A DNA stretch of 64,000 bases, taken from assembly GCA_029261035.1 (NCBI GenBank), contig JAJDCD010000025.1, positions 130,926-194,925 on the forward strand, given 5' to 3'. The DNA comes from Candidatus Omnitrophota bacterium. Its GTDB lineage: Bacteria > Omnitrophota > Omnitrophia > Omnitrophales > JACROU01. Position 1 is the stretch's first letter. Every line of letters starts with the position of its first letter. Shown here piece by piece: positions 2,049 to 63,376 of this stretch. The position numbers and the translations under genes were made by a program. The notes beneath the pieces are model-generated. The model was given only the letters and a program-made list of their open reading frames with translations. It did no database searches and was not told the origin of the DNA.

Positions 2049-3167
2049 TCACAATAAGTATAACAGTCGATCTATATCTTTCTCATTATTGTAAAAGTGT
2101 GGGGCTACGCGTAAACCACCGCCTCTTGGAATGGAAAATATTTTTTCTTTAAATAAAGTTATAGCAGCTTTTTCTGGGTCAGACACTTTAAGAATCACAA
2201 TACCTGAACGATACTCTGGTTCTATGGGTGACAAAGCAGGGATGTTCTTCTTTTGAGCTTGCTCAATGAGATAGTCGGTGAGAAAAAGAATGCGTTCTTG
2301 AATCTCTTTTTTTCCAATAGAATCAAAATAAGAACAGGCGGCACCTAAACTAAAATAGCTTGGAAATGAAGGGCCTCCATATTCAAATCGCGAACAATTA
2401 GGATTCAAAACCGTATTCTTATTATCATATCGATCCGGATCATCCACGCTACGCCATCCAGCAAAAGATGGTTTTTTGCTTTCCAAAAGTCCTTTTCGAA
2501 TATACAAAACACCCCCTCCATAACCAGCCATCATCCACTTATAACTATTCCCCGTCATGCAATCAACGCCCATTGCTTTAACATCGATTGGGAAAGCCCC
2601 TAAAGCTTGAGAGCAGTTAACCACAAAATGTGCTTCCCGTTCTTTGGCTATTTCTGAAAGAGCTTTTAGGTCTTGTCTAAAACCTGTAGCGTATTGAACA
2701 TAACTGGAAAGAATCGTTTTAATCGAAGAGCTCCACTTCTCTTTAAAAAGTTTAGGAAGCGTTTTATTGTCTTCAGAAGATAAAAAATGCACCTTTTCCG
2801 TTTGATGAAGCCAAGGCACTGTTGAAGCGGGAAATTCCATATCGCTCATCATAACTTCCCCATCACTTTTTAGAAGATCGACAATTAAATTCATCCCCTC
2901 AGAAGTACTATGCACAAAAGCAACTTCCTCAGGGTCTGCATTGATGAATTGAGCTACATTCCTTCGAGCTTCTTCTTTGCGCTCGAGCCACTCATCCCAA
3001 ACAAAATCTCCTTGATTCAAAGACTCCTGCCAATACCCAGAAGCCGCCTCAAAAGCAGGACGAGACACTAACCCTCCAGCAGCATGATCCAAATAAACAT
3101 AATCTTTCACACTAGGAAAATCCTCTTGTCTTAATTTACCCCAATCAATCATAATACCTCCCCTCAA
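2049..3167 (-). CDS. Class V aminotransferase / cysteine desulfurase-like PLP enzyme
   Basis: 372 aa with a PLP-fold region SSYVQYATGF...CSQALGAFPIDVKAMGVDCMTGNSYKWMMAGYGGGVLYIRKG. The track start at 3167 is TTG. An ATG at 3152 (MIDWGKL) preceded by gaggggagg is the more likely start. Confidence 0.7.
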   Translation of the reverse strand: MRGGIMIDWGKLRQEDFPSVKDYVYLDHAAGGLVSRPAFEAASGYWQESLNQGDFVWDEWLERKEEARRNVAQFINADPEEVAFVHSTSEGMNLIVDLLKSDGEVMMSDMEFPASTVPWLHQTEKVHFLSSEDNKTLPKLFKEKWSSSIKTILSSYVQYATGFRQDLKALSEIAKEREAHFVVNCSQALGAFPIDVKAMGVDCMTGNSYKWMMAGYGGGVLYIRKGLLESKKPSFAGWRSVDDPDRYDNKNTVLNPNCSRFEYGGPSFPSYFSLGAACSYFDSIGKKEIQERILFLTDYLIEQAQKKNIPALSPIEPEYRSGIVILKVSDPEKAAITLFKEKIFSIPRGGGLRVAPHFYNNEKDIDRLLYLL

Positions 3168-3192
3168 AAAGCATCGTCACACATGTGACGAT
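3163..3192 (-). terminator. Palindrome atcgtcacacatgtgacgat plus U-run (minus-strand terminator/attenuator-like)
   Basis: On the minus strand the 9-bp stem is followed by gcuuuuu. It lies directly 5' of the aminotransferase RBS and 3' of the SpoU gene. A paralogous palindrome sits at 62683-62704. Confidence 0.4.
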
Positions 3193-3204
3193 ACAATATA
3201 CCTA

Positions 3205-3237
3205 GGCAAAATAAGTGCTCGATGCACTTCTTTTGCC
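3205..3237. repeat. R2 hairpin repeat (ggcaaaatAAGTGCtcgatGCACTTcttttgcc)
   Basis: 14-bp stem with 1 mismatch and a 5-nt loop. The core aaaataagtgctcgatgcactt is also at 9189-9225 and 62823-62860, and degenerate at 27339-27368. Confidence 0.75.
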
Positions 3238-3279
3238 AACCTCTCAACACTCACACTAATTTTATACCTCACAGAAAAA

Positions 3280-3352
3280 GATTGTTTTCCCGCCGCGAGT
3301 TCACAAAAATCGTATTGTATTTTTGTGCTGTCTGAGCGCCGGGAATACAATC
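3280..3352. repeat. R3 structured repeat (outer stem + GCGAGTTcacaaaa-loop-ttttgtgcTGTCTGAGC)
   Basis: gattgttttcccgccGCGAGTTcacaaaa atcgtattgtattt ttttgtgcTGTCTGAGCgccgggaatacaatc. Paralogues at 9258-9336, 27421-27492 and 62899-63000 have different loops and compensatory outer stems. Confidence 0.75.
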
Positions 3353-3375
3353 TTTTCCGACCCACCTACCTAAAA

Positions 3376-3903
3376 TTACCCTCTCCCACCCCACTGTCTC
3401 AACAACTCATAAACAATAATCGAAGTAGCCGTAGAAACATTCAAAGAATTCTTCTCACCCCGCATAGGAATCTCAATCGCCCGATCCGCATACTTCATCA
3501 ATCTCTCATCAACCCCATTCACCTCATTCCCAACAACTAAACAAAGAGGATAAGGGTATTCCACATCCCAATACACTTGAGATTCTTCAATGTGCTCTAA
3601 CACCACTATGTGATATCCCGATCGAGTTAACGATTCTAACGCACGGGAGGCATCTACATGATACTCCCAAGGAACCGTCTTCTCCGCACCCAAAGCCGTT
3701 TTACCTACTTTAGGGTTATCCGGAGTGGAAGTAATTCCCGCTAAAATAATTTTTTCCAATCCAGCACCATCCGCAAGACGAAACAAACTTCCCACGTTGT
3801 AAGAACTTCTAATATTATCTAGAAGTAAACAGACAGGCAAACACTCTAATTCCGAATTATTTTTCCTTAATTCTAATATTTCTTGATGACTCAACTTTTT
3901 CAT
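3376..3903 (-). CDS. SpoU/TrmH-family RNA 2'-O-methyltransferase
   Basis: 175 aa carrying SpoU motifs LCLVVGNEVNGVDERL and IPMRGEKNSLNVSTATSIIVYEL. Confidence 0.7.
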   Translation of the reverse strand: MKKLSHQEILELRKNNSELECLPVCLLLDNIRSSYNVGSLFRLADGAGLEKIILAGITSTPDNPKVGKTALGAEKTVPWEYHVDASRALESLTRSGYHIVVLEHIEESQVYWDVEYPYPLCLVVGNEVNGVDERLMKYADRAIEIPMRGEKNSLNVSTATSIIVYELLRQWGGRG

Positions 3904-3910
3904 CGTTATA

Positions 3911-4360
3911 ATGGCACCTTACTTCATTAGGAGAGCAATTAATATGTTTAAAAACCCAACAATGCATTCTAAACCAGATTTCTGGCTTAACTTACCCGGA
4001 ATTGTAACAAAACTGGCTATTCTGCCCTTATCTATTTTTTTAGGCCTAATTCCCTCTATTATCTCCGGAGTACTTACAGCGTGCATTATATGTCTTTTTA
4101 GGCATATCTCTTACAAAGAATCTTTTTACAAGATTCTCAAAGGAATTTCAGAACCTACATACTTTTTTATGCTATCAGGAATTTTATGTATTTATTTCTA
4201 TATGAATACAAATTGGCAGGGGTTAATACTTATAGTAACAAACTTATTTATAGGAGAGCAGCTTTGGAATAAATTGCCTTTATGGCTTGAAAACTACTAT
4301 TGTGAGAAGGTAAATAAAACATCAAGTGTCGATCACATAAACCAAAAAATCAAAAGTTAA
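3911..4360 (+). CDS. Hypothetical membrane protein
   Basis: 149 aa with 3-4 predicted hydrophobic helices. No recognisable family. Confidence 0.3.
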   Translation: MAPYFIRRAINMFKNPTMHSKPDFWLNLPGIVTKLAILPLSIFLGLIPSIISGVLTACIICLFRHISYKESFYKILKGISEPTYFFMLSGILCIYFYMNTNWQGLILIVTNLFIGEQLWNKLPLWLENYYCEKVNKTSSVDHINQKIKS

Positions 4361-4842
4361 AAATCTTCATCATCCTCAAAACGTCCAGACAGTGTCGCCC
4401 CCCAAGTTCTACGGCCTCCATCAACAAGGTTGGGGTCCTCTTTGGTTGTTCCCCAATTAGAATTATCAACAGTTTCTGTTGTAGAGTAATCTTCCTTCTT
4501 ACGTCTTCCTGGTTTTTTGAAATCTCTTTCTGTCATTTTTTCTTCTAAAAGTTTCTCATCCACCTGCAAAGGTTGATCTACATTTCTCTTACGTCCTCTA
4601 GTTTTCTTTTCTGTAACTTCCTTTACCTTCACTTTATTAACAGATACAGTTTTCTTAACCCCTTTCGAAGAAGTTTTCTTCTTAGACAGAGAGGTCTTCT
4701 TTTCAACCTTTTTCTTAGCAATTTTTTTCTTGGAAGCCTTGGGTTTAACGACAGATCTCTTCTTAGAAGCCTTTTTCTTAACAGCTTTTTTCTTTCTTAC
4801 AGGGGAAGACTTTGCTTTTTTTTTCTTAGCCATAAAGATCAC
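4357..4842 (-). CDS. Lysine-rich basic (histone H1-like) protein with an acidic C-terminal tail
   Basis: 161 aa. The N-terminal ~70 aa are K-rich (KKKASKKRSVVKPKASKKKIAKKK). The C-terminus ends ...GRFEDDEDF. Confidence 0.5.
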   Translation of the reverse strand: MIFMAKKKKAKSSPVRKKKAVKKKASKKRSVVKPKASKKKIAKKKVEKKTSLSKKKTSSKGVKKTVSVNKVKVKEVTEKKTRGRKRNVDQPLQVDEKLLEEKMTERDFKKPGRRKKEDYSTTETVDNSNWGTTKEDPNLVDGGRRTWGATLSGRFEDDEDF

Positions 4843-4878
4843 CTCTTATGCGGATATCTCAATATAAGTATAAATAGA

Positions 4879-4914
4879 AAAGGATATGGAGCCTTTAAAA
4901 ACCCCATATCCTTT
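4879..4914 (-). terminator. Rho-independent terminator of the Hc2-like gene
   Basis: Perfect 11-bp stem aaaggatatgg/ccatatccttt followed on the minus strand by a U-rich tract (ucuauuuauacuua). It lies 3' of the stop at 4963. Confidence 0.5.
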
Positions 4915-4962
4915 ATAAAAAACCCAACAAGCGATTGATTTATTAATAAGCAAATCCGTTTA

Positions 4963-5184
4963 TTATTTTCTTTTCTTTTTTGTAGCTTTTTTCTTTGCTT
5001 TTTTCTTAGCTGGCTTTTTCTTAGCAGCTTTTTTCTTTGCTTTCTTTTTTGCTTTTTTCTTAGCAGCCTTTTTCTTAGCAGCCTTTTTCTTTGCTTTTTT
5101 CTTAGCTGGTTTTCTTGCTACTTTTCTTTTCTTAGTAGCTTTTTTCTTACCAGCTTTTTTCTTTGCTTTTTTCTTTGCAGCCAT
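4963..5184 (-). CDS. Histone H1-like / Hc2-like lysine-alanine repeat DNA-binding protein
   Basis: 73 aa made almost entirely of AKKKA/KKAAK pentapeptide repeats. The DNA is a tandem ~15-nt repeat (gcttttttcttagca). Composition matches chlamydial Hc2 / AlgP-type histone-like proteins. Confidence 0.7.
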   Translation of the reverse strand: MAAKKKAKKKAGKKKATKKRKVARKPAKKKAKKKAAKKKAAKKKAKKKAKKKAAKKKPAKKKAKKKATKKKRK

Positions 5185-5610
5185 TGTTAACTCCTTCCCT
5201 CATCCTGAGGTTAAGTTAATGAACCTACTATTAATGAATCATCGCTTTATTAGGTTTAGTTTTCAAAAAACATTTACTTTCGACTTTACTCTCAAAAATG
5301 CGAGATATTCTACTTCGAAAGTTTGTACTCTTATTAACGGAATAATATATCTATTCCTTTATAAAATATTTTACCACTTCATTCTAGTGAATTACAAGTA
5401 TTAATCGCATTTTTTTAAAAAAAGATTATTTATTTTTTTGCGAGAGAAATTATTTTTGTTTAAATTAAAAATATTTTTTTGAATTTTAGTTTTAAAATTT
5501 GTTTTTTCTCTTTTTTTTTCATAGCATTTTAAACTTTTGGTTTTAATTTTTATCAGCGTATTAAAAAATAAAACATTAGATTAACTCTCTCTACCCTATA
5601 ACAATGTGAG
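5185..5610. promoter_or_regulatory. Very AT-rich 425-bp divergent intergenic region
   Basis: Long A/T tracts lie between the Hc2-like gene on the minus strand and the lipoprotein gene on the plus strand. This is probably promoter DNA. Confidence 0.35.
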
Positions 5611-6136: not shown

Positions 6137-7435
6137 TCACCTCCCTGACCCAAATAAATTAATAACATCACTCCGAATCTTTTTATCCTTATCAAAGTCC
6201 AATAATGCTAATTTTACTGTAAACTCTCCAAACTGATCATTGATGAGATCCATTGCTTTTCTCAACCTTAACTGCTTTTCTGATTCTTTAAGAAACCAAA
6301 GATCCTCCCCCTTACAGGACAAATCGGAAACACTCACCCCTATCAAACGAATTCCTCTCTTAATAAAAGAATGCTCCTTCGTCTTTTTAGAAAAACCCAT
6401 AAATATCTCTAAAGACTCTTTATATATATCTTGTCCATCGTCCATAGCATAGTGACACTTCTTTTGCTTCCCCAAGCTCTTCTTATCACTAAATCGTATT
6501 TTTAAATGGATGGTTCTTCCTTGTAAATTTTGTTTCCGTAAACGTCTGCCTACTCTTTCTGAGAGCCAAAGCAAATACTTTCTAAACTCTCGATAATCAT
6601 AAGTATCTTCTAATAAAGTATACGAGTGTCCTACAGATTTAACTCTATCCTTTGCATCAGCCAAAGCCACAGGAGAATGATCTACCCCCATCCCCATACG
6701 TTTTAATACTGGTCCAATAATACCAAATCTCTCAAAGAGAATATCTTCCGGAAATTGAGCCAATTGACCGCAGGTACGAACACCTAACAAATGAAGCTTA
6801 TCTGTCATATTGGGACCAATACCACACAAGGCATTAATAGGCCTATCTTTTAAAAACCCTTCAACTTTAGGAGAATCAATACGCAAGAGTCCATTAGGCT
6901 TACAATGATCACTGACAAGCTTAGCTAAAAGTTTATTAGGAGCTATTCCAACAGACATCGTAATACCAAAACGCTTCTGAACCCAAGACCTCAAACTGTT
7001 ACCCAAATCTTCCACACAAGGAAAGAAAAACTTGTACGTATCTGTGACATCCATAAAAGCTTCATCAATCGAAAATATCTCTACCTGAGGGGTAAACTCA
7101 GACAACTTCTGAAAAATAATCTGTGAGGTCTCTACATATTTTTGACTATTCGCCGGAACCACAATAGCATGAGGGCATAGTTTTCTTGCCTGAACCAAGC
7201 TCATTCCAGACCCAACCCCATAAGGGCGCGCTTCATAACTCGCAGCACAAACAACCCCTCGAGTCATCGAATGCCCTCCTACCAAAACAGGTTTTCCTCT
7301 ATAATTTGGGTTGGCACTCTGTTCTACAGAAGCAAAAAAAGCATCCATATCGACATGAAATATGATTCTTTCTCTATTGGATATATTTGTTGTTGGAAGT
7401 TGATTGGTAAGATGAACAGATTTACGAGTAAGCAT
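6137..7435 (-). CDS. dinB: DNA polymerase IV (Y-family, DinB)
   Basis: IIFHVDMDAFFASVEQ...KPVLVGG, then the Y-family palm and little-finger pattern. It sits immediately downstream of lexA. Confidence 0.85.
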   Translation of the reverse strand: MLTRKSVHLTNQLPTTNISNRERIIFHVDMDAFFASVEQSANPNYRGKPVLVGGHSMTRGVVCAASYEARPYGVGSGMSLVQARKLCPHAIVVPANSQKYVETSQIIFQKLSEFTPQVEIFSIDEAFMDVTDTYKFFFPCVEDLGNSLRSWVQKRFGITMSVGIAPNKLLAKLVSDHCKPNGLLRIDSPKVEGFLKDRPINALCGIGPNMTDKLHLLGVRTCGQLAQFPEDILFERFGIIGPVLKRMGMGVDHSPVALADAKDRVKSVGHSYTLLEDTYDYREFRKYLLWLSERVGRRLRKQNLQGRTIHLKIRFSDKKSLGKQKKCHYAMDDGQDIYKESLEIFMGFSKKTKEHSFIKRGIRLIGVSVSDLSCKGEDLWFLKESEKQLRLRKAMDLINDQFGEFTVKLALLDFDKDKKIRSDVINLFGSGR

Positions 7436-7445
7436 TGAAACGTTA

Positions 7446-7530
7446 GAAGTCGGAAGTCAGAAGTCGGAAGTCAGAAAAGTTCTGATGTCCGCCTTCTGTC
7501 GTCTGACCTCTGCTTTCTGACCTCAGAGGA
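7446..7530. repeat. Heptad tandem/inverted repeat array (GAAGTCN x4 then TTCTGAC-like units)
   Basis: agaagtcggaagtcagaagtcggaagtcagaa | aag | ttctgatgtccgccttctgtcgtctgacctctgctttctgacc forms an imperfect long hairpin centred on cagaa-aag-ttctg. It lies in the 5' leader of dinB inside the lexA operon. Confidence 0.6.
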
Positions 7531-7865: not shown

Positions 7866-8459
7866 TTAGTATTTTCTAAACAAGCTTACGAGCTTACCTA
7901 AAACCTGAACATCCTTCACCTTGATATCTTCATACTTAAGATTTGCTGGTCTTAAAATAATATGGTTTTTCTTTTTATAAAATTGTTTGAGGGTCACCTC
8001 ATCCTCTATGAGAGCAGCCACAATATCTCCATCTTGAGCTGTTTTCTGTTCATGCATTACCACATAATCCCCATCGTGAATTCCTTTCTCAATCATACTG
8101 TCTCCCTGGACCTTAATAATATAGTTACCCGCTTGAGCAAATTCTTTAGGCAAAGGAATACTCTCTTTAATATCTTCAACAGCCAACATGGGACGCCCAG
8201 CTGCAATTTGTCCAAGCAAAGGAATTTCTATCACTTCCGGCTTTTCAGAAGTAAATCGAATAGAACGAGATTGGCGCGGTTCATGAGTAAAAACACCTCG
8301 GGTTCTTAAATGAGACAGGTGCTCATGAACCGTGCTGGCTGCAAGACCCAAAGCTTTGGCTATATCTCGAACCGAAGGAGAGTATCCTTGTTCGGAGATA
8401 AAGCCTTGAACATATTCAATAATGCGTTGTTGTGTAATTCCAGTATTTGCCTTTGTCAT
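7866..8459 (-). CDS. lexA: LexA repressor (S24 peptidase)
   Basis: N-terminal wHTH and a C-terminal S24 domain with AAG cleavage site, GDSM serine and LKQF lysine. The start is chosen at MTKANTG (8459), because the longer ORF start at 8483 falls inside the LexA box. Confidence 0.85.
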   Translation of the reverse strand: MTKANTGITQQRIIEYVQGFISEQGYSPSVRDIAKALGLAASTVHEHLSHLRTRGVFTHEPRQSRSIRFTSEKPEVIEIPLLGQIAAGRPMLAVEDIKESIPLPKEFAQAGNYIIKVQGDSMIEKGIHDGDYVVMHEQKTAQDGDIVAALIEDEVTLKQFYKKKNHIILRPANLKYEDIKVKDVQVLGKLVSLFRKY

Positions 8460-8476
8460 AACAGTTCGAAGTATAC

Positions 8477-8490
8477 CGAACATATGTTCG
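8477..8490. promoter_or_regulatory. LexA operator (Cheo-box type CGAACATATGTTCG)
   Basis: Perfect palindrome cgaacatatgttcg about 18 nt upstream of the lexA start. It matches the GAAC-N4-GTTC consensus used by Gram-positive-type LexA. Confidence 0.7.
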
Positions 8491-8671
8491 GTTTACAAGT
8501 ATTATTTTATCTTTTTTTTATAGCATCTTAAGTTGTTTCTATTAAATAAGTTACAGTTGTAGTAATTATAAGCAAATAAACAATTGAATTGTCGAAGTGT
8601 AGGAAGAAACAATAAAAGACAAAGATAATCATGACTATCTGTCCGCTGTCTTCTGATATAATGCCTCTCCT

Positions 8672-9188: not shown

Positions 9189-9225
9189 ATAATAAAATAA
9201 GTGCTCGATGCACTTCTTTTATTAT
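9189..9225. repeat. R2 hairpin repeat copy
   Basis: ataataaaatAAGTGCtcgatGCACTTcttttattat. Same core as 3205-3237 with a different, compensating outer stem. Confidence 0.7.
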
Positions 9226-9257
9226 CTCCCTTCTCCCCACCCAAGTCTACACAAACA

Positions 9258-9336
9258 AGAAAAAGGGAATGCCTCCACTGCGAGTTGCGGAGGCCTTTGG
9301 CCGAGCATGTCTGAGCAGTGGAGGCATTCCCTTTTT
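9258..9336. terminator. R3 repeat copy acting as a bidirectional intrinsic terminator
   Basis: Perfect 22-bp outer stem gaaaaagggaatgcctccactg/cagtggaggcattccctttttc encloses GCGAGTT...TGTCTGAGC. T-runs flank it on both strands, between convergent genes 8672-9175 (+) and 9375-10559 (-). Confidence 0.65.
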
Positions 9337-9374
9337 CGCCACAACTTATAATCTTTTCTACTCACCTTAACAAA

Positions 9375-10559
9375 CTACTTCTTAACCACCTCAACCGTAC
9401 TCCTAGAAGTAAACTGATACTCAATCCCTCTCCAAGTCATCTTTCGAGCAAAAGCAGGAATAATAAAACTTCCAATCGCAAGCACTTGAGTCGCCAAAGC
9501 CAAAACAGGATACCAAATTGTAATCTCACCTATCGTAGGAACTTCCTCTTTAAGACCATCATCAATCGCTTTCTTCAATAAAAGTGTGTTCACAACAGAC
9601 ATATAAACAGGAGACAAAAATAACCAATGCCTCCAATCTAAAGTACCTTGCTGAGCAGCCATAACAAATACGACAGGACTCACCAACATAAACACAATTC
9701 GAGCAATAAACATCAAAGAAACCCCAGTCCACTTCTCTGGGAAATAAACGCGAGAAAGCAAAGACTGCCGATTGGCCCATTTAATAAAATCAATAAAACG
9801 AGTCCCCTCGTAGATAGGTACGATGTTCTGAGGAACAAAGTAATTCTCAAGCCCTGTTGGTTTTAATGCCATACTCAATGTTAAATCATCCGTAAGCGCT
9901 GTCTTCCATATCTCTCTTACATTAAACTCTTCAAAGTGTTTCTTACAGACAGCCATAGCACCCCCATAACACCCTCTAAAACGCTTTACTGTCACAAAGG
10001 CACCTAACCCTGACATCCAGGTAGACTTCACCAAAGACCAGAAAGTCTTCTTTAAAGGAACGTAAACAGGAATACCCGTCGTTATTCCAACATGATCATA
10101 TTGAAGAGGAGCAATTAGGCTTTTAATCCATAAAGGTTGAGGAGATGTATCCGAATCCATAAAAACTAAAACCTCAGACTTATCTCGAACAACTTCCGTC
10201 GCACGAACCAAATTATTAAGTTTCCCAGTATTTGTTACAGGATGTCCCGCAACCACAATTTGAGTCGGTATATCCAAATGAGCACTTGTTAATTCTTGAA
10301 GACGCTCATACGCAGGATCTTCTACTGTTGCTACAGCAAAAACAATTTCATAATCAGGATAATCCTGATTCAATATCGATTTGATGCTCTTATCAAAATT
10401 AGGATCTATCCCCTTGCAAGGAATAATAACGGAAAGAGGAGGGAAATAATCAGGGTGTTTAATTTTAAGTCTTTTTTCCGTCACCCAAAAAAAGTTGAAA
10501 ATAAAAAAGAATTGAAACAAAGTTAAAGTAACACAAACCACGGTTAGTATTTCAAACAT
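9375..10559 (-). CDS. Membrane glycosyltransferase, GT2/GT21 (ceramide-glucosyltransferase-like) family
   Basis: N-terminal TM, then VIIPCKGIDPNFDKSI...MDSDTSPQP (DxD) and C-terminal TM helices. Confidence 0.55.
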   Translation of the reverse strand: MFEILTVVCVTLTLFQFFFIFNFFWVTEKRLKIKHPDYFPPLSVIIPCKGIDPNFDKSIKSILNQDYPDYEIVFAVATVEDPAYERLQELTSAHLDIPTQIVVAGHPVTNTGKLNNLVRATEVVRDKSEVLVFMDSDTSPQPLWIKSLIAPLQYDHVGITTGIPVYVPLKKTFWSLVKSTWMSGLGAFVTVKRFRGCYGGAMAVCKKHFEEFNVREIWKTALTDDLTLSMALKPTGLENYFVPQNIVPIYEGTRFIDFIKWANRQSLLSRVYFPEKWTGVSLMFIARIVFMLVSPVVFVMAAQQGTLDWRHWLFLSPVYMSVVNTLLLKKAIDDGLKEEVPTIGEITIWYPVLALATQVLAIGSFIIPAFARKMTWRGIEYQFTSRSTVEVVKK

Positions 10560-17263: not shown

Positions 17264-17406
17264 CTTCTTTTATCCCTTGCCCTATCGGGCTATCAGCAAT
17301 CAGCCTTCAGCGAAAATCAACTCATTGTCATTCTGATCCGCCTTTGGCGGAGAAGAATCTAAAACCATCTCTCTCAAGAGATCCTTCGTATGCACTCAGG
17401 ATGACA

Positions 17407-18390: not shown

Positions 18391-18494
18391 AGCGGATAGC
18401 GCATAGCGTTTAGCGTATAGAAAAACAAAAAAACGCTTCATCTGTCTTTTTGACAAATGTCCCTATACGCTCCACGCTAAACGCTCTACGCTAT
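18391..18494. repeat. Inverted heptad array (AGCGNNT x4 / NNACGCT x4) forming a long hairpin in the nuoCD-nuoH spacer
   Basis: agcggatagcgcatagcgtttagcgtatag ...40-nt loop... ctatacgctccacgctaaacgctctacgctatcg. A related direct copy tagcgtttagcgtagagcgtatag is at 62637-62662. Confidence 0.6.
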
Positions 18495-25972: not shown

Positions 25973-27154
25973 TTATTCTTCTTTGATATCTATTTCAACA
26001 TTAATTCTTCTAGGCTCCACGTTTTCCAAAACAACTTTTTTGTTCGAAAAAGTAACGTCTGAATTTGAAATAAACACACTTTGTTTTTCTTTTCTTACGT
26101 CTAATGTTCTTAGAATTAGGTGGATCGTATTCGCATTAGCAAAATAAAACGACCTTCTAGGTCCGGAAAAGCTAACCTCTACGACTTCAGGGTCTGTTTT
26201 TACCTCAGTAACACTTTTAGGTAATTTAGCGTATTCTACAGGAATTTCGTAGGTTTTATAAACTAATTTAGACCCATCTACTAAAACAAACCATAAAGCT
26301 AAGGACATAACTAATGCAATGACCTTTTCTCTATAGTTTTTCTTAAAGAAATGCTGCCATGGCTTCTTTTCTTCTTCTGGAGCAATCACCTTGTAGAATT
26401 TCTCTAGAAGACGGCTTAAAGCATTCGCATCTTCTATTTCCTTAATCTCCGCTTTATTAGCATAGGATATACTCCCTCTCTCTTCCGAAACGATCAAACA
26501 CAAAGCATCTGAGAGCTCTGACAAACCTAAAGCAGCAGCATGTCGTGTTCCTGACTGGCCCAATTTCTTCATATTCTTAGACAAAGGCAAATGAGACCCA
26601 ATTTGAGAAATTCGATTCTTTTCAACAATCACAGCACCATCATGTCCTGCAGAATGCGGATCGAAAATACTCTTTAAAATAGGCTCACTCAACTTCCCAT
26701 CAAGCTCAACACCACCTTCTAAATGTCTCAAGATTAAATCTTTGCCTCGGATAACAATTAAAGCCCCAATACTCTCACGAGACAAATCCATAATTGTCCT
26801 CACAAGAACTTCTGTTTCAGGTCTTGTAATTCGCTCCCGCCCTCTTATCTTGAGCCTTCGCTTCAATCCAAAAAGTGCAATCTGTTCAAAGAAATGCCTT
26901 AACTCTTCCTGAAAAATAACCACAAGTGCTATTAAAAAAACAGCAAAAAAACCTTCAAAAATAGTAGATGTGAGATACAGATTAAACTGTCTGGACAATA
27001 AATAAATGAGAGCAACAATAAATATCCCCGTCAACACAAACGCTGCTTTAGTCTTCTTAAACCACACAAGAATACTATAAACAACCAGCGTCATAAAAAG
27101 AATATCAATCAACCCCGACACACCCATTTCCTTCAAAAAACTCAACACACCCAT
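25973..27154 (-). CDS. cdaA: Diadenylate cyclase CdaA with a C-terminal TM + YbbR-like extension
   Basis: 3 N-terminal TM helices. DAC motifs GALIVI, DGAVIV and GTRHAAALGLSELSDALCLIVSEERGSISYA. An extra ~125 aa follows (TM VIALVMSLALWFVLV plus a beta-rich YbbR-like region). Confidence 0.8.
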   Translation of the reverse strand: MGVLSFLKEMGVSGLIDILFMTLVVYSILVWFKKTKAAFVLTGIFIVALIYLLSRQFNLYLTSTIFEGFFAVFLIALVVIFQEELRHFFEQIALFGLKRRLKIRGRERITRPETEVLVRTIMDLSRESIGALIVIRGKDLILRHLEGGVELDGKLSEPILKSIFDPHSAGHDGAVIVEKNRISQIGSHLPLSKNMKKLGQSGTRHAAALGLSELSDALCLIVSEERGSISYANKAEIKEIEDANALSRLLEKFYKVIAPEEEKKPWQHFFKKNYREKVIALVMSLALWFVLVDGSKLVYKTYEIPVEYAKLPKSVTEVKTDPEVVEVSFSGPRRSFYFANANTIHLILRTLDVRKEKQSVFISNSDVTFSNKKVVLENVEPRRINVEIDIKEE

Positions 27155-27304
27155 AACACACCCTCAATCTATAGCCATTAGCCATTAACTTCAACCGCCA
27201 GAAGCGGTCCGCTATCTTTACAGCGGATTCTAAATCCTAAACAAACACATCACCATAAACAACGCCTTCATCCCCAACCTAATCAAACCGCTAACAACAA
27301 AACG

Positions 27305-27333
27305 CGTTTCGTTATGAATACCATAACGAAACA
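27305..27333. repeat. R5 hairpin repeat (gtttcgttatN-loop-NataacgaaaC)
   Basis: Perfect 11-bp stem gtttcgttatg/cataacgaaac. A paralogue with the same stem and a different loop is at 62787-62814. Confidence 0.65.
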
Positions 27334-27338
27334 CCTTA

Positions 27339-27368
27339 AACCCCAGAAACAATATGGGCTCGATGCCA
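27339..27368. repeat. Degenerate R2 copy
   Basis: aaatatgggctcgatgccatcttgttt versus R2 core aaataagtgctcgatgcacttctttt. Confidence 0.45.
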
Positions 27369-27420
27369 TCTTGTTTCAACCCCTAACACACTATCAAGCG
27401 TTCAGAACTTAAAGGAAAAT

Positions 27421-27492
27421 AAAATGTTCCCGCCGCGAGTTCACAAAAATCGTTCCTCAATTTTTGTGCTGTCTGAGCGCCGGGAACATTTT
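27421..27492. repeat. R3 structured repeat copy
   Basis: aaaatgttcccgccGCGAGTTcacaaaa atcgttcctcaattt ttgtgcTGTCTGAGCgccgggaacatttt. Perfect 12-bp outer stem with compensatory changes relative to copy 3280-3352. Confidence 0.75.
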
Positions 27493-27524
27493 ATTTTCCT
27501 CTCACCCACATCCACGCTCCAAAC

Positions 27525-28589
27525 CTAACCCCTAAACGGATAAACCCACTTTACCTTCAAAGGAATCCTAACCCTCCTCATAAACCTCTGCACCAACTCT
27601 TTCTCCACCTTAATCCAAAATGCCTCATCCCTATTCTTCCCAATCTTAAAACTCCCCCCTCCAATACTCCCATGCCCCCCCGCATCTCCTCGATCATCAA
27701 AAATATCTCTCAACACTTCACCTGCTTGAGCATTAGGAGTTGAAGTTCTCAACGAAACATGAAGTTTCCCATTATATCTTCCCGTAGTTAAAGACCAACG
27801 GATTCCTTTGTACGTAAGCAGAAAATCAGCAATTTGAGAAACAAGATCTGGATTCTTAACGTCACCCAAATGAGAAAAAATAAGGCTTCGACATTTTACA
27901 GCTGTCTGAATTCCTTTTCCCAAACTAACAAAAAAACTGCGTGAAAGAGCCGATGGATTTTGAATACGTGCCAAAGCCCTCAAATCGCAATAAGGAAGTA
28001 TGTCTAAATAAACACGAATTACTTTCGGATGTTTTGCTCGATATAAATTTAATGTATCCGAAATAATCCCATATGCAAGAGCCGTTGCAATCCGCACTGG
28101 AATTTCTTTACCTAAGATTAATAACGCTTGCGCCAATATAACCGATGTCGCTCCACAGTCAGGATCCACAATGCTCAAATCAGCATTTGGCTTCTCTTCC
28201 GAAGGGTGTTGATCTAGAACTATTCTAGAACGTCTGCTTTTGGGAAATGGATTGTTTTTAAAATTAGGCTGGGTATCTACGAGGGCCACATTAGAATATT
28301 TCTTAAAATCATTTTTCCTTAACTTGTGTACTGGAATTTTAAGCGTATGGACTAATTCTTTATTTTCAACTCTCCCTATAATGCCTCCATAAACCATTTT
28401 AGACGGAACCCCATAATTACTCTCTACAATATGTTGCAAAGCAAAAGCACTCGCAATGGCATCTGGATCTGGAAAATCGTGCATCAAAATTAAAAGCGGA
28501 TTGATATCCTCTTTTTTTTCTTTTAAAAAAGACAATAGCTTCTCTGCATTTAGCTGAATATGATCTGGTTTTATTTTCATCTTCTTCAT
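27525..28589 (-). CDS. DHH-family phosphoesterase (NrnA-like; possible pApA/c-di-AMP phosphodiesterase)
   Basis: N-terminal DHH region LILMHDFPDPDAIASAFAL and a DHHA1-like GGHGSIGGGS. It lies immediately upstream of cdaA. Confidence 0.6.
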   Translation of the reverse strand: MKKMKIKPDHIQLNAEKLLSFLKEKKEDINPLLILMHDFPDPDAIASAFALQHIVESNYGVPSKMVYGGIIGRVENKELVHTLKIPVHKLRKNDFKKYSNVALVDTQPNFKNNPFPKSRRSRIVLDQHPSEEKPNADLSIVDPDCGATSVILAQALLILGKEIPVRIATALAYGIISDTLNLYRAKHPKVIRVYLDILPYCDLRALARIQNPSALSRSFFVSLGKGIQTAVKCRSLIFSHLGDVKNPDLVSQIADFLLTYKGIRWSLTTGRYNGKLHVSLRTSTPNAQAGEVLRDIFDDRGDAGGHGSIGGGSFKIGKNRDEAFWIKVEKELVQRFMRRVRIPLKVKWVYPFRG

Positions 28590-42720: not shown

Positions 42721-42813
42721 TAAATACTCCTATAATTAAGGGTGAGGAATAAAAAAAGAGGACATTCTAATGAAATAGAACATCCTCTTTTGATTAAATA
42801 ACAAAGAACGAAA

Positions 42814-62620: not shown

Positions 62621-62636
62621 TTTCTCCTTTCCTTAC

Positions 62637-62662
62637 TAGCGTTTAGCGTAGAGCGTATAGAC
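62637..62662. repeat. Heptad repeat tagcgttt-agcgtag-agcgtat (R4), paralogue of the nuoCD-nuoH spacer arms
   Basis: ctagcgtttagcgtagagcgtatag versus 18398-18420 gcatagcgtttagcgtatag. Confidence 0.55.
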
Positions 62663-62682
62663 TTCCTTTGTCTTATTAACCC

Positions 62683-62704
62683 GATCGTCACACACGTGAC
62701 GATA
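62683..62704. repeat. Palindrome atcgtcacacacgtgacgat (paralogue of 3173-3192)
   Basis: Same palindrome as 3173-3192 with one substitution. Confidence 0.55.
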
Positions 62705-62786
62705 CCACCTGAATCCTAAACCAACTTATCTGCACAATTAGGCATTTATCCCTGCAATTCTATAATCTTCCTGTAAACAATTAAAT

Positions 62787-62814
62787 GTTTCGTTATTTAG
62801 ACCAATAACGAAAC
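62787..62814. repeat. R5 hairpin repeat copy
   Basis: gtttcgttatt-tagacc-aataacgaaac, same stem as 27305-27333. Confidence 0.65.
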
Positions 62815-62822
62815 TCATTACA

Positions 62823-62860
62823 CCCAGGCAAAATAAGTGCTCGATGCACTTATTTTGGCA
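62823..62860. repeat. R2 hairpin repeat copy
   Basis: cccaggcaaaatAAGTGCtcgatGCACTTattttggcaaccc. Confidence 0.7.
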
Positions 62861-62898
62861 ACCCTCCACACCCCCCACTTGTATTAAAACACTTCAGG

Positions 62899-63000
62899 AG
62901 GAGGAAGGAATATTCCCCGCCGCGAGTTCACAAAAGGGACAGTCCCCAATGGGGACAATCCCTTTTGTGCTGTCTGAGCGCTGGGGAATATTCCTTCCGA
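62899..63000. repeat. R3 structured repeat copy with an inserted inner hairpin
   Basis: Perfect 16-bp outer stem ggaaggaatattcccc/ggggaatattccttcc encloses GCGAGTTcacaaaa, an inner hairpin gggacagtcccc-aat-ggggacaatccc, and ttttgtgcTGTCTGAGC. Confidence 0.75.
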
Positions 63001-63022
63001 CGACGAGCCCTTCACAACAACT

Positions 63023-63376
63023 CTAAACCTCTTTAAAGACCCGATATAACAACACTCCTGCAATAATCCCCAGACAATCAAACACCCCATCCCAAAAACT
63101 CATCATTCTTGTTGGGACAAAGTACTGATGAACCTCATCAGATACAGCATAAAGCACTGCCAAAACAATCCCTATAAAAATAAAGTCTGAAATCCAAGTT
63201 CTAAGAAAACGAAAAAATAAAATAGGCACAGGGATGTACAACAAAAAATGAAACAACTTGTCTATAAATGGAATAGGATTTTCAACAGGGGTAATAGGAA
63301 CACTAGAAAGGTAAAACAAAAAGGACAAATAGCCCAACAGAGGAATTACTGAGAAAAAGAGATAAGAAAGATTCAA
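63023..63376 (-). CDS. VanZ-like small membrane protein
   Basis: 117 aa with 4 TM helices. SDEVHQYFVPTR...D...G resembles the VanZ motif. Confidence 0.4.
   Translation of the reverse strand: MNLSYLFFSVIPLLGYLSFLFYLSSVPITPVENPIPFIDKLFHFLLYIPVPILFFRFLRTWISDFIFIGIVLAVLYAVSDEVHQYFVPTRMMSFWDGVFDCLGIIAGVLLYRVFKEV

Follow-up and report, generated by a model that had tools for sequence, protein, structure and literature searches.

Mosaics of hairpin repeats with conserved tips and copy-specific stems beside gene ends in an uncultured Omnitrophota bacterium

Modular intergenic repeats include the BOX elements of Streptococcus pneumoniae (boxA-boxB(n)-boxC) and the NIME and Correia elements of Neisseria, which combine constant ends with optional middles, contain long stem-loops, lie between genes, and can affect the expression of their neighbours. 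Terminal inverted repeats and a TA duplication mark Correia elements, and in BOX the A and C ends are conserved in sequence. In enterobacteria, BIMEs (REP/PU) are intergenic mosaics in which short palindromes and other motifs follow one another in fixed order, and two accounts present them as presumed terminators, mRNA stabilisers, and protein-binding sites (PMC2817692, PMC3733652). Here we describe two long spacers in a 64,000-nucleotide (nt) stretch of DNA from Candidatus Omnitrophota bacterium (GenBank assembly GCA_029261035.1, contig JAJDCD010000025.1, positions 130,926 to 194,925 of the forward strand; hereafter the window). Locus A separates a gene for a DHH/DHHA1 phosphoesterase from the diadenylate cyclase gene cdaA, and locus B separates a VanZ-like gene from a 4HBT thioesterase gene, all four on the minus strand. 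Both spacers are composed of modules, among them a short tract (M1) and three hairpins (H1, H2, and the long hairpin H3). What we observe are modules in a conserved order, hairpin stems that are copy-specific and compensated, a fixed position and orientation beside gene ends, and the insertion of the 370-nt spacer at locus A. We give an even chance to the reading that both spacers are paralogous, BIME/NIME/BOX-like mosaics of terminator-like hairpin repeats at gene ends, which likely insulate genes and protect 3′ ends and which spread by recombination or by a trans-acting enzyme.

A global alignment of loci A and B is colinear, and the homologous stretch extends from 27228 to 27500 in A and from 62709 to 62998 in B (~275–290 nt), which is ~273 of the 370 nt of the first spacer and ~290 of the 402 nt of the second. 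When the alignment was cut into segments and each was scored against 500 shuffles, identity was above the shuffled level for the M1 tract (71%, z 3.3), the linker between M1 and H1 (57%, z 3.2, with none of the 500 shuffles as good), H1 (86%, z 7.4), H2 (66%, z 4.6), and H3 (69%, z 8.9). It was not above that level for the 5′ 73–88 nt next to the downstream gene (27155–27227 versus 62621–62708; 47%, z −1.0), for the spacer between H2 and H3 (51%, z −0.3), or for the final 24 nt before the upstream stop codon (38%, z −1.1). A first-pass annotation of the window had proposed paralogy of the two spacers along their entire length; the colinear part bears this out, and the three segments at shuffle level restrict it. 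That annotation had named similarity confined to the short hairpins as the outcome that would count against it, and we found that the similarity reaches past the hairpins into the M1 tract and the linker. Every specific feature that it had listed was present where it had been placed: the hairpin with an 11-base-pair (bp) stem and different loops (H1, in which 10 bp are identical and the eleventh pair covaries, G-C versus T-A), the shared tract AATCCTAAAC(A/C)AAC (M1), the palindrome ATCGTCACACAYGTGACGAT of the 62.6-kb spacer with its recurrence near 3.2 kb, and the heptad unit TAGCGYW, which is found at 62637–62657 and again in the nuoCD-nuoH spacer at 18391–18492.

The same modules mark two further places in the window. 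Taken together, the H2 loop, both halves of the H3 core, and the pattern GCGAGTT-N-TGTCTGAGC that combines these halves single out four plus-strand loci (A to D, Table 1) where shuffles predict none; the core halves CCGCGAGTTCACAAAA and TTTTGTGCTGTCTGAGCGC have three window sites each against 0–0.4 expected, and the H2 loop has four against 0.16. All four loci contain a constant unit made up of H2, a C-rich spacer of 33–45 nt, and H3, and the optional modules (H1, M1, a 20-bp palindrome, and heptad arrays) sit between this unit and the next gene start, H1 and M1 being confined to loci A and B and the palindrome to loci B and C. R1, a covariance model of the H3 copies, was run unfiltered over the window and found only these four sites, at 62–88 bits; the reverse strands of the four loci scored 21–27 bits, and the best unrelated window site scored 9 bits. 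It could be argued that A and B are alike merely as two AT-rich, C-skewed spacers, given that their 5′ blocks, H2-H3 spacers, and tails match no better than shuffled sequence, but the recurrence of the palindrome, the H2 loop, and the 16–19-nt halves of the core greatly exceeds what shuffles predict, module order is conserved, and the R1 scores leave every unrelated window site far behind; chance likeness is thus already refuted, and we assign it a probability close to nil. Per-module identities are reticulate, with H2 94% identical between B and C, and H3 76% identical between A and C versus 65% between B and C. Because of this, the copies are better described as mosaics than as truncations of one master, and from the earlier proposal of a longer composite with truncated versions we retain the modular composite and the shorter loci at 3.3 kb and 9.2 kb, and drop the truncation.

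The conservation of H3, which is 80–96 nt long, lies mainly in its tip. Its outer stem, P1, is copy-specific in sequence and measures 17–23 bp, or 29 bp in a fifth copy found on a metagenome contig (L006, described below). Above P1 come a C.C mismatch (a C-G pair in D), a CGC/GCG helix (UGC/GCG in L006, UGC/GCA in D), and an invariant 5x8 internal loop in which GAGUU stands opposite (C/A)UGUCUGA (GAGUU x CUGUCUGA), followed by an inner stem, P2, that opens with CAC/GUG (GC/GC in D) and closes in a variable tip. Locus D thus carries the usual internal loop on a different P1 and P2 and without the C.C mismatch. Across the five copies, the 22 specified pairs are 99% paired and 12 pairs are altered on both sides, values that none of 500 shuffles reached; registers slid out of place gave only 39–56% pairing, and RNAalifold recovered the same helices independently. 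Because covariation is so far above that of shuffles and slid registers, we conclude that the pairing and the unpaired core are selected or are maintained by some mechanism. The 45–60-nt tip, which runs from the C.C mismatch through the CGC/GCG helix and the 5x8 internal loop to the base of P2, is a conserved cassette and most likely a recognition site for a protein or enzyme.

H2 follows a similar design, in that its loop and closing pair (GCUCGAUGC) are invariant across copies, and the stem in A is different yet paired. H1 is the reverse, with the arms GTTTCGTTAT...ATAACGAAAC present in both A and B and a free loop. The M1 tract is 14 nt long. Coordinates of all these features are collected in Table 1.

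Table 1. Loci, modules, and adjacent stop codons in the window (positions count from its first nucleotide).
Feature	Locus	Position	Strand	Remarks
Locus	A	27155-27524		modules M1, H1, H2, H3
Locus	B	62621-63022		modules heptads, palindrome, M1, H1, H2, H3
Locus	C	3168-3360		modules palindrome, H2, H3
Locus	D	9189-9337		modules H2, H3 (variant)
H3 long hairpin	A	27413-27500	+	core GCGAGTT...TGTCTGAGC at 27435-27478; R1 88.4 bits
H3 long hairpin	B	62903-62998	+	core 62922-62979; R1 80.7 bits
H3 long hairpin	C	3276-3356	+	core 3295-3337; R1 81.5 bits
H3 variant	D	9259-9337	+	core 9280-9316; 23-bp perfect arms; R1 62.7 bits
H2-H3 spacer	A	27378-27412	+	C-rich, G-poor; holds degenerate copy of cdaA ribosome-binding site/start region
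H2 hairpin	A	27346-27377	+	variant stem, conserved loop GCTCGATGC; stem unlike B/C/D, still pairs
H2 hairpin	B	62829-62857	+	CAAAATAAGTGC-TCGAT-GCACTTATTTTG
H2 hairpin	C	3205-3237	+	94% identical to B copy
H2 hairpin	D	9189-9225	+	begins 14 nt past stop of plus-strand SNase gene
H1 hairpin	A	27306-27332	+	11-bp stem GTTTCGTTATG/CATAACGAAAC, 5-nt loop; terminator-like on minus strand
H1 hairpin	B	62787-62814	+	11-bp stem, 6-nt loop
M1-H1 linker	A	27247-27305	+	weakly conserved; 57% identity to 62728-62786
M1 tract	A	27233-27246	+	AATCCTAAACAAAC; exact or near-exact copy at 62712-62725
M1 tract	B	62712-62725	+	AATCCTAAACCAAC
Palindrome	B	62684-62703	+	ATCGTCACACACGTGACGAT; second copy 3173-3192
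Palindrome	C	3173-3192	+	ATCGTCACACATGTGACGAT; minus strand: run of five T (TTTTT) next
Stop codon beside H3	A	27525-27527	-	DHH gene
Stop codon beside H3	B	63023-63025	-	VanZ-like gene
Stop codon beside H3	C	3376-3378	-	SpoU methylase gene
Stop codon beside H3	D	9375-9377	-	glycosyltransferase gene

Position is as constant as structure. H3 ends 24, 24, 19, and 37 nt before a minus-strand stop codon at A, B, C, and D, respectively, and its core is always on the strand opposite the adjacent gene, in L006 as well as in A to D; at locus D the flanking genes are convergent, a plus-strand SNase gene facing the minus-strand glycosyltransferase gene. Of the outer arms, the 5′ one is rich in purines or A and the 3′ one in T (e.g., GAAAAAGGGAATGCCTCC...GGAGGCATTCCCTTTTTC at 9259–9337), and they resemble an ordinary bidirectional terminator of the same genome at 42754–42791. 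A/T-rich tracts flank the H3 stem in A, C, and D, though not in B or L006, and a simple terminator scan scored H1, H2, and the palindrome as terminator-like. We propose that H3, and probably H2, H1, and the palindrome too, would act in cis as terminators or 3′-end-protecting hairpins that insulate neighbouring genes, with an outer stem that is locus-specific, flanked by A-rich and T-rich tracts, and like the ordinary bidirectional terminators of the genome. The tip would be a recognition cassette for a protein or enzyme, and the copies may have been spread and reshuffled by recombination or by a trans-acting enzyme, not as self-contained transposons with defined ends. Such placement matches what one survey describes for REP/BIME-type repeats, namely that they lie mainly downstream of open reading frames (ORFs), between unidirectional and convergent genes (PMC3733652).

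Several points weigh against this proposal. The terminator scan made no call for H3 itself; we infer termination and stabilisation from shape and position alone; and a purely structural terminator needs neither an invariant asymmetric internal loop nor a fixed orientation. The only two single-sided changes in H3 (one in P1 of B, the other the UGC/GCG of L006) keep a wobble pair, G-U or U-G, when the plus strand is read, whereas the gene strand has A-C there, which counts weakly against a role at the level of the mRNA; one C.A in P2 of B, which the gene strand would read as a wobble pair, points the other way. On balance these changes lean slightly to the plus strand as the functional one, without deciding it. 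The family is also thin, with five known copies of H3 and five of H2, and the core was found neither among GTDB representatives (as a 19-mer) nor in IMG/VR. Both strands of H3 fold about equally well, and no conserved promoter was seen on either strand at loci A to D.

Two coding explanations for the conserved core were set aside. As a signal for stop-codon read-through, or one tied to UAG, it would have the support that three of the four upstream stops are TAG, compared with 25% of stops in the window (p ~0.05), and that four of five copies share one phase of the core relative to the stop (p ~0.14); locus C has an immediate in-frame stop. As a conserved small ORF or type I toxin it fails, the cores being read in different frames or without start codons on both strands, with indels that are not multiples of three. 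Locus A does have a Shine-Dalgarno-like site and an ATG at 27415–27428, with frames and starts that are not conserved in B, C, and D.

Copies beyond the window are few. The H3 core 19-mer gave two chance matches only in 185,579 GTDB species representatives, neither of them matched by R1; in IMG/VR there was no exact match, and looser patterns gave matches without the H3 hairpin. A BLAST search of plasmids returned one match, in Pantoea, A-rich and due to chance, and a full-text literature search for the core strings returned primers only. Rfam 15 gave no match over the window at the gathering threshold and, at E≤10 over three regions, only chance hairpin matches (miRNA precursors, HIV POL-1). 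A 24-base gapped pattern, however, retrieved one JGI metagenome contig, L006, which is of high GC (at least 60%) and carries an identical H3 core on an unrelated, G+C-rich stem. This H3 follows the stop codon of an isoleucyl-tRNA-synthetase-like gene (ileS) at a distance of 15 nt and is antisense to that gene, and neither H2 nor H1 nor a C-rich region was found near it. It stands alone (L006, 832–909 and 395–503) between the 3′ end of that gene and a gene for tRNA-Pro(TGG) ~330 nt away; the C-terminal 125 residues of the synthetase-like protein had no relative in a collection of 5.8 billion proteins at E≤1e-10.

The H2 20-mer likewise retrieved a single contig, L130, from the IMG/VR collection of viral contigs. 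Identity there extends to 25 nt and includes the same T.C mismatch, the outer stem is different, and on the strand with CUCGAUG in the loop the hairpin is followed by a T-rich tail. Because the H3 core in L006 and the H2 tip in L130 both occur on other stems, the design of a conserved tip on a free stem is not peculiar to one genome. Positions 1–2088 of L130 (IMGVR_UViG_3300032011_004599) form a non-coding leader of 2 kb with many direct repeats (iteron-like TTGACAAC units, GCGCGCTACTGCACG...), and the 361-residue ORF downstream of it looks, by eye only, like a replication protein of RecA/RepA type; a related host may carry L130 as a plasmid- or phage-like replicon. Two H1 matches in the viral contigs L128 and L129 equal the chance expectation, one of them being like a phage repressor operator, and we take them as unrelated.

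The origin of the spacer at locus A can be read from the same junction elsewhere. Exact look-ups of three proteins from the window returned nothing, and of cdaA only a fragment was present in one Logan run (SRR15505516). The organism has no close relative in the protein collection; the best non-identical CdaA, at 63% identity, is encoded on contig L003, which is syntenic with the window from CofD through the nuo operon. We compared the DHH-cdaA junction of the window with those of L003 and of L140 to L144, contigs with related cdaA genes. The spacer of 370 nt, which holds the hairpin mosaic, corresponds to 127 nt in L003, occupied by an inverted pair of a different repeat (TGTCATCCC-hairpin-GGGATC), to 27 nt in L140–L142 and 17 nt in L143, in both cases free of repeats, and to 140 nt in L144, without H3; H3 was found in none of these contigs. 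Because this junction spans 17–140 nt in the other contigs, the long spacer reflects insertion into an ancestrally tight junction, and one DHH-cdaA junction has been colonised by different hairpin repeats in different lineages. An imperfect direct repeat of 19 nt at locus A (27149–27167 and 27379–27397, 16 of 19 positions identical, reached in 4 of 1000 shuffles) duplicates the cdaA ribosome-binding site and first two codons, with AUG changed to AGG in the degenerate copy, and suggests that the 211-nt block from the heptads to H2 that it brackets was inserted as a unit. No flanking direct repeat above shuffle level was found at loci B, C, and D; a search of the four loci for inverted repeats returned internal hairpins only and no end-to-end (terminal) pair; and no transposase, integrase, or reverse transcriptase domain was present among the window ORFs scanned with Pfam, the other ORFs being assigned by synteny with L003.

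The different repeat seen in L003 is a second family that is common to that contig and the window genome and consists of TGTCATCCC, a covarying hairpin, and GGGATCC. The window has seven copies, at 35, 71, 112, 1878, 1978, 17326, and 17406, which lie on either side of the ETF-QO gene and take up the nuoI-nuoH spacer. In L003 it is found at 7127/7155, 9876/9968, and 19522/19623, with inverted, REPIN-like pairs in the DHH-cdaA and nuoCD-nuoH spacers.

Among described repeats, the loci share with BIMEs an intergenic, ordered palindrome mosaic placed after ORFs, with neighbouring genes that are unidirectional or convergent, as at all four loci and in L006; they differ in having no sequence similarity and no alternating orientation of units. 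REP/BIME repeats are further characterised by more than 100 copies per genome and an associated RAYT gene; the 64 kb of the window contain four copies of the unit. H1 (27–28 nt), H2 (29–37 nt), and the palindrome (20 nt) fit the REP/BIME size of 20–40 bp, and H3 does not. The likeness to BOX, NIME, and Correia elements is that of modular intergenic composites with long stem-loops; in contrast to BOX and Correia, the outermost stems here are copy-specific and only the tips are conserved. Like bidirectional Rho-independent terminators, the hairpins occur just past stop codons, including those of the convergent locus D, and consist of a G+C-containing stem set symmetrically between A-rich and T-rich tracts, but in an ordinary terminator the stem is short and the loop small and not conserved in sequence, whereas H3 has a 45–60-nt conserved apical structure in fixed orientation. 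On the plus strand, H3 recalls a kink-turn (5′-GC-GA-GUU / UGUCU-GA-GC-3′, with tandem G.A/A.G by a G-C helix and extra bulged bases); the −1 position would be G.G instead of a Watson-Crick pair and there are three extra nt on the "non-bulged" strand, and we treat this as a lead only. Integron attC sites were rejected on the grounds that the hairpin bases are copy-specific and lack the R-box consensus (RYYYAAC / GTTRRRY), that the neighbours are syntenic housekeeping genes, and that no integrase was found. Hammerhead, twister, twister-sister, pistol, hatchet, and hairpin ribozymes were rejected by eye and with Rfam, H3 having only two helices and no matching core. Because at least one testable defining feature is absent in each case, we do not file the loci under REP, miniature inverted-repeat transposable elements (MITEs), attC, kink-turns, or any Rfam family; the hairpin-repeat sequences are new, the tip-conserved design is unusual, and the repeats belong to no named family.

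Other readings of the same observations need to be considered alongside terminator-like mosaics. An unlikely one is that the loci are sibling small-RNA genes on the plus strand, convergent with the upstream gene, in which H1 and H2 would be 5′ hairpins, the C-rich spacer a seed that pairs with Shine-Dalgarno-like G-rich sites, and H3 a shared 3′ terminator. Sibling families with C-rich seeds are known, among them LhrC1-5 and RoxS/RsaE, and like them our loci are paralogous and each present an unpaired C-rich stretch between a 5′ and a 3′ hairpin; they differ from them in having no conserved promoter and no sequence relation, in the occurrence of H3 alone in L006, and in being known here from sequence alone. 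The plus strand is where both single-sided H3 substitutions remain wobble-paired, where the H2-H3 spacer is C-rich and G-poor with CCUCC/CUCCC-type strings, and where the internal loop, as read from the sequence, allows the tandem G.A/A.G beside a G-C helix; the unit at locus D comes right after a plus-strand gene, as in a small RNA derived from a 3′ untranslated region. However, the C-richness is partly a strand-wide skew, the plus strand of the window having 14.7% G and 22.4% C. The window as a whole has 37% G+C, and nearly all of its genes are on the minus strand. A near-consensus promoter-like site upstream of H1 at locus B (TAGGCA-16-TATAAT, 10/12) is not conserved in A and is inconsistently positioned in C and D, and such sites are about as frequent as in shuffled sequence; on the plus strand, H3 is not followed by a U-run outside its own stem, and the H3 of L006 does without H2 or a C-rich region. 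The first-pass suggestion of a larger non-coding RNA gene is neither borne out nor refuted: base-pair covariation is strong but fits either strand, and there is neither an Rfam family nor a conserved promoter.

Two mobile-element readings strike us as less probable still. According to one, which we consider distinctly improbable, each locus is a MITE-like, non-autonomous transposable element of ~150–290 bp, some copies truncated, with a transposase encoded elsewhere in the genome. This would account for dispersed copies that share the H3-side end and differ in how far they reach on the other side, for the clear insertion into an ancestrally short operon junction, and for the 19-nt imperfect direct repeat that brackets the H2-to-heptad block at locus A. 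A transposed unit should, however, keep the same ends, whereas H2 and H3 have outer stems that vary from locus to locus, and module relationships are reticulate; nor did the 64 kb yield terminal inverted repeats, flanking direct repeats at B, C, and D, or a transposase, integrase, or reverse transcriptase gene. Of the non-autonomous mobile element in the first-pass annotation, then, the origin of the spacer by insertion survives, and the missing terminal repeats, the lack of a transposase among the ORFs scanned, and the lack of a consistent target duplication speak against the rest. The other, on which we place similarly little weight, is that the conserved tips work as single-stranded DNA, being recognition hairpins for a strand-specific DNA enzyme (a Y1/HUH transposase of REP-RAYT or IS200/IS605 type, or a loop-targeting element), and that small palindromic cassettes were grafted into the loops of terminators already in place. 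Insertion sequences that target REP loops are known (IS1397 and some IS110-family elements). Such grafting would explain the locus-specific outer stems together with the uniform orientation; H3 and H2 both show a conserved tip on a variable, perfectly paired outer stem in unrelated contexts, they point one way with respect to co-directional genes and hence probably to replication, and G-T pairs are tolerated in DNA hairpins. Against it, neither strand has a GTAG/CGTC-type unpaired tag at the feet of H1, H2, or H3, and the CGTC of the palindrome lies inside its stem, the criteria being those set out in PMC3733652; moreover, no Y1 transposase gene was found in the window, H3 is far longer than REPs, and there is no empty terminator for comparison.

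Some further features of the window may be recorded. The aminotransferase ORF next to locus C is listed from a TTG at 3167, and a likelier start is the ATG at 3152–3150 (minus strand), with GAGGGGAGG ahead of it; with that start, the palindrome at 3173–3192 and its TTTTT lie directly upstream of the aminotransferase ribosome-binding site. Tandem heptamer arrays with site-specific units (AGAAGTC/GGAAGTC, TAGCGYW, CCATTAG, CTTCACG, and others) occur at 7445–7530, 18391–18420 with 18463–18492, 62637–62657, 27169–27189, ~2000–2030, and ~17285–17310, mostly just upstream (minus strand) of gene starts; some form inverted pairs and thus potential long hairpins, and the arrays resemble the STRR repeats of cyanobacteria. 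A Cheo/LexA-type SOS box, CGAACATATGTTCG (8476–8489, within 8471–8496), overlaps the start of a lexA-like ORF (7866–8483, minus; Peptidase_S24 and LexA_DNA_bind), downstream of which is a DinB/IMS-family polymerase gene (6137–7435), and the pair looks like an autoregulated SOS operon. Lastly, 4695–5193 is a dense repeat with a 12/15-nt period (CTTTTTTCTTAGCAGC) whose minus strand would encode a Lys/Ala-rich, histone-H1-like protein of low complexity; the one ORF scanned around it (4357–4842, minus) had no Pfam match.

If the mosaics are merely REP/BIME-like, they would explain inflated spacers, operon breaks such as that between the DHH gene and cdaA, and assembly gaps in an uncultured lineage, and they could serve as lineage markers. 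An invariant, asymmetric tip on free but paired stems, beside stop codons, in fixed orientation, and with the same core in a distant high-GC organism suggests something further, namely a partner protein or a loop-targeting insertion, and we know of neither having been described for terminator-like hairpins. R1 makes this question testable on complete genomes and metatranscriptomes. We consider it possible, though rather unlikely, that the apical cassette of H3 (C.C, CGC/GCG, GAGUU x CUGUCUGA, CAC/GUG) is a new strand-specific recognition module, of RNA or single-stranded DNA, that is bound or processed by a protein and has been grafted onto gene-terminal hairpins of phylogenetically unrelated bacteria (GC content 37% in the window and at least 60% in L006), with H2 following the same rule of conserved tip and free stem. 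If so, it would represent a new class of terminator-embedded element or of mobile DNA that targets hairpin loops.

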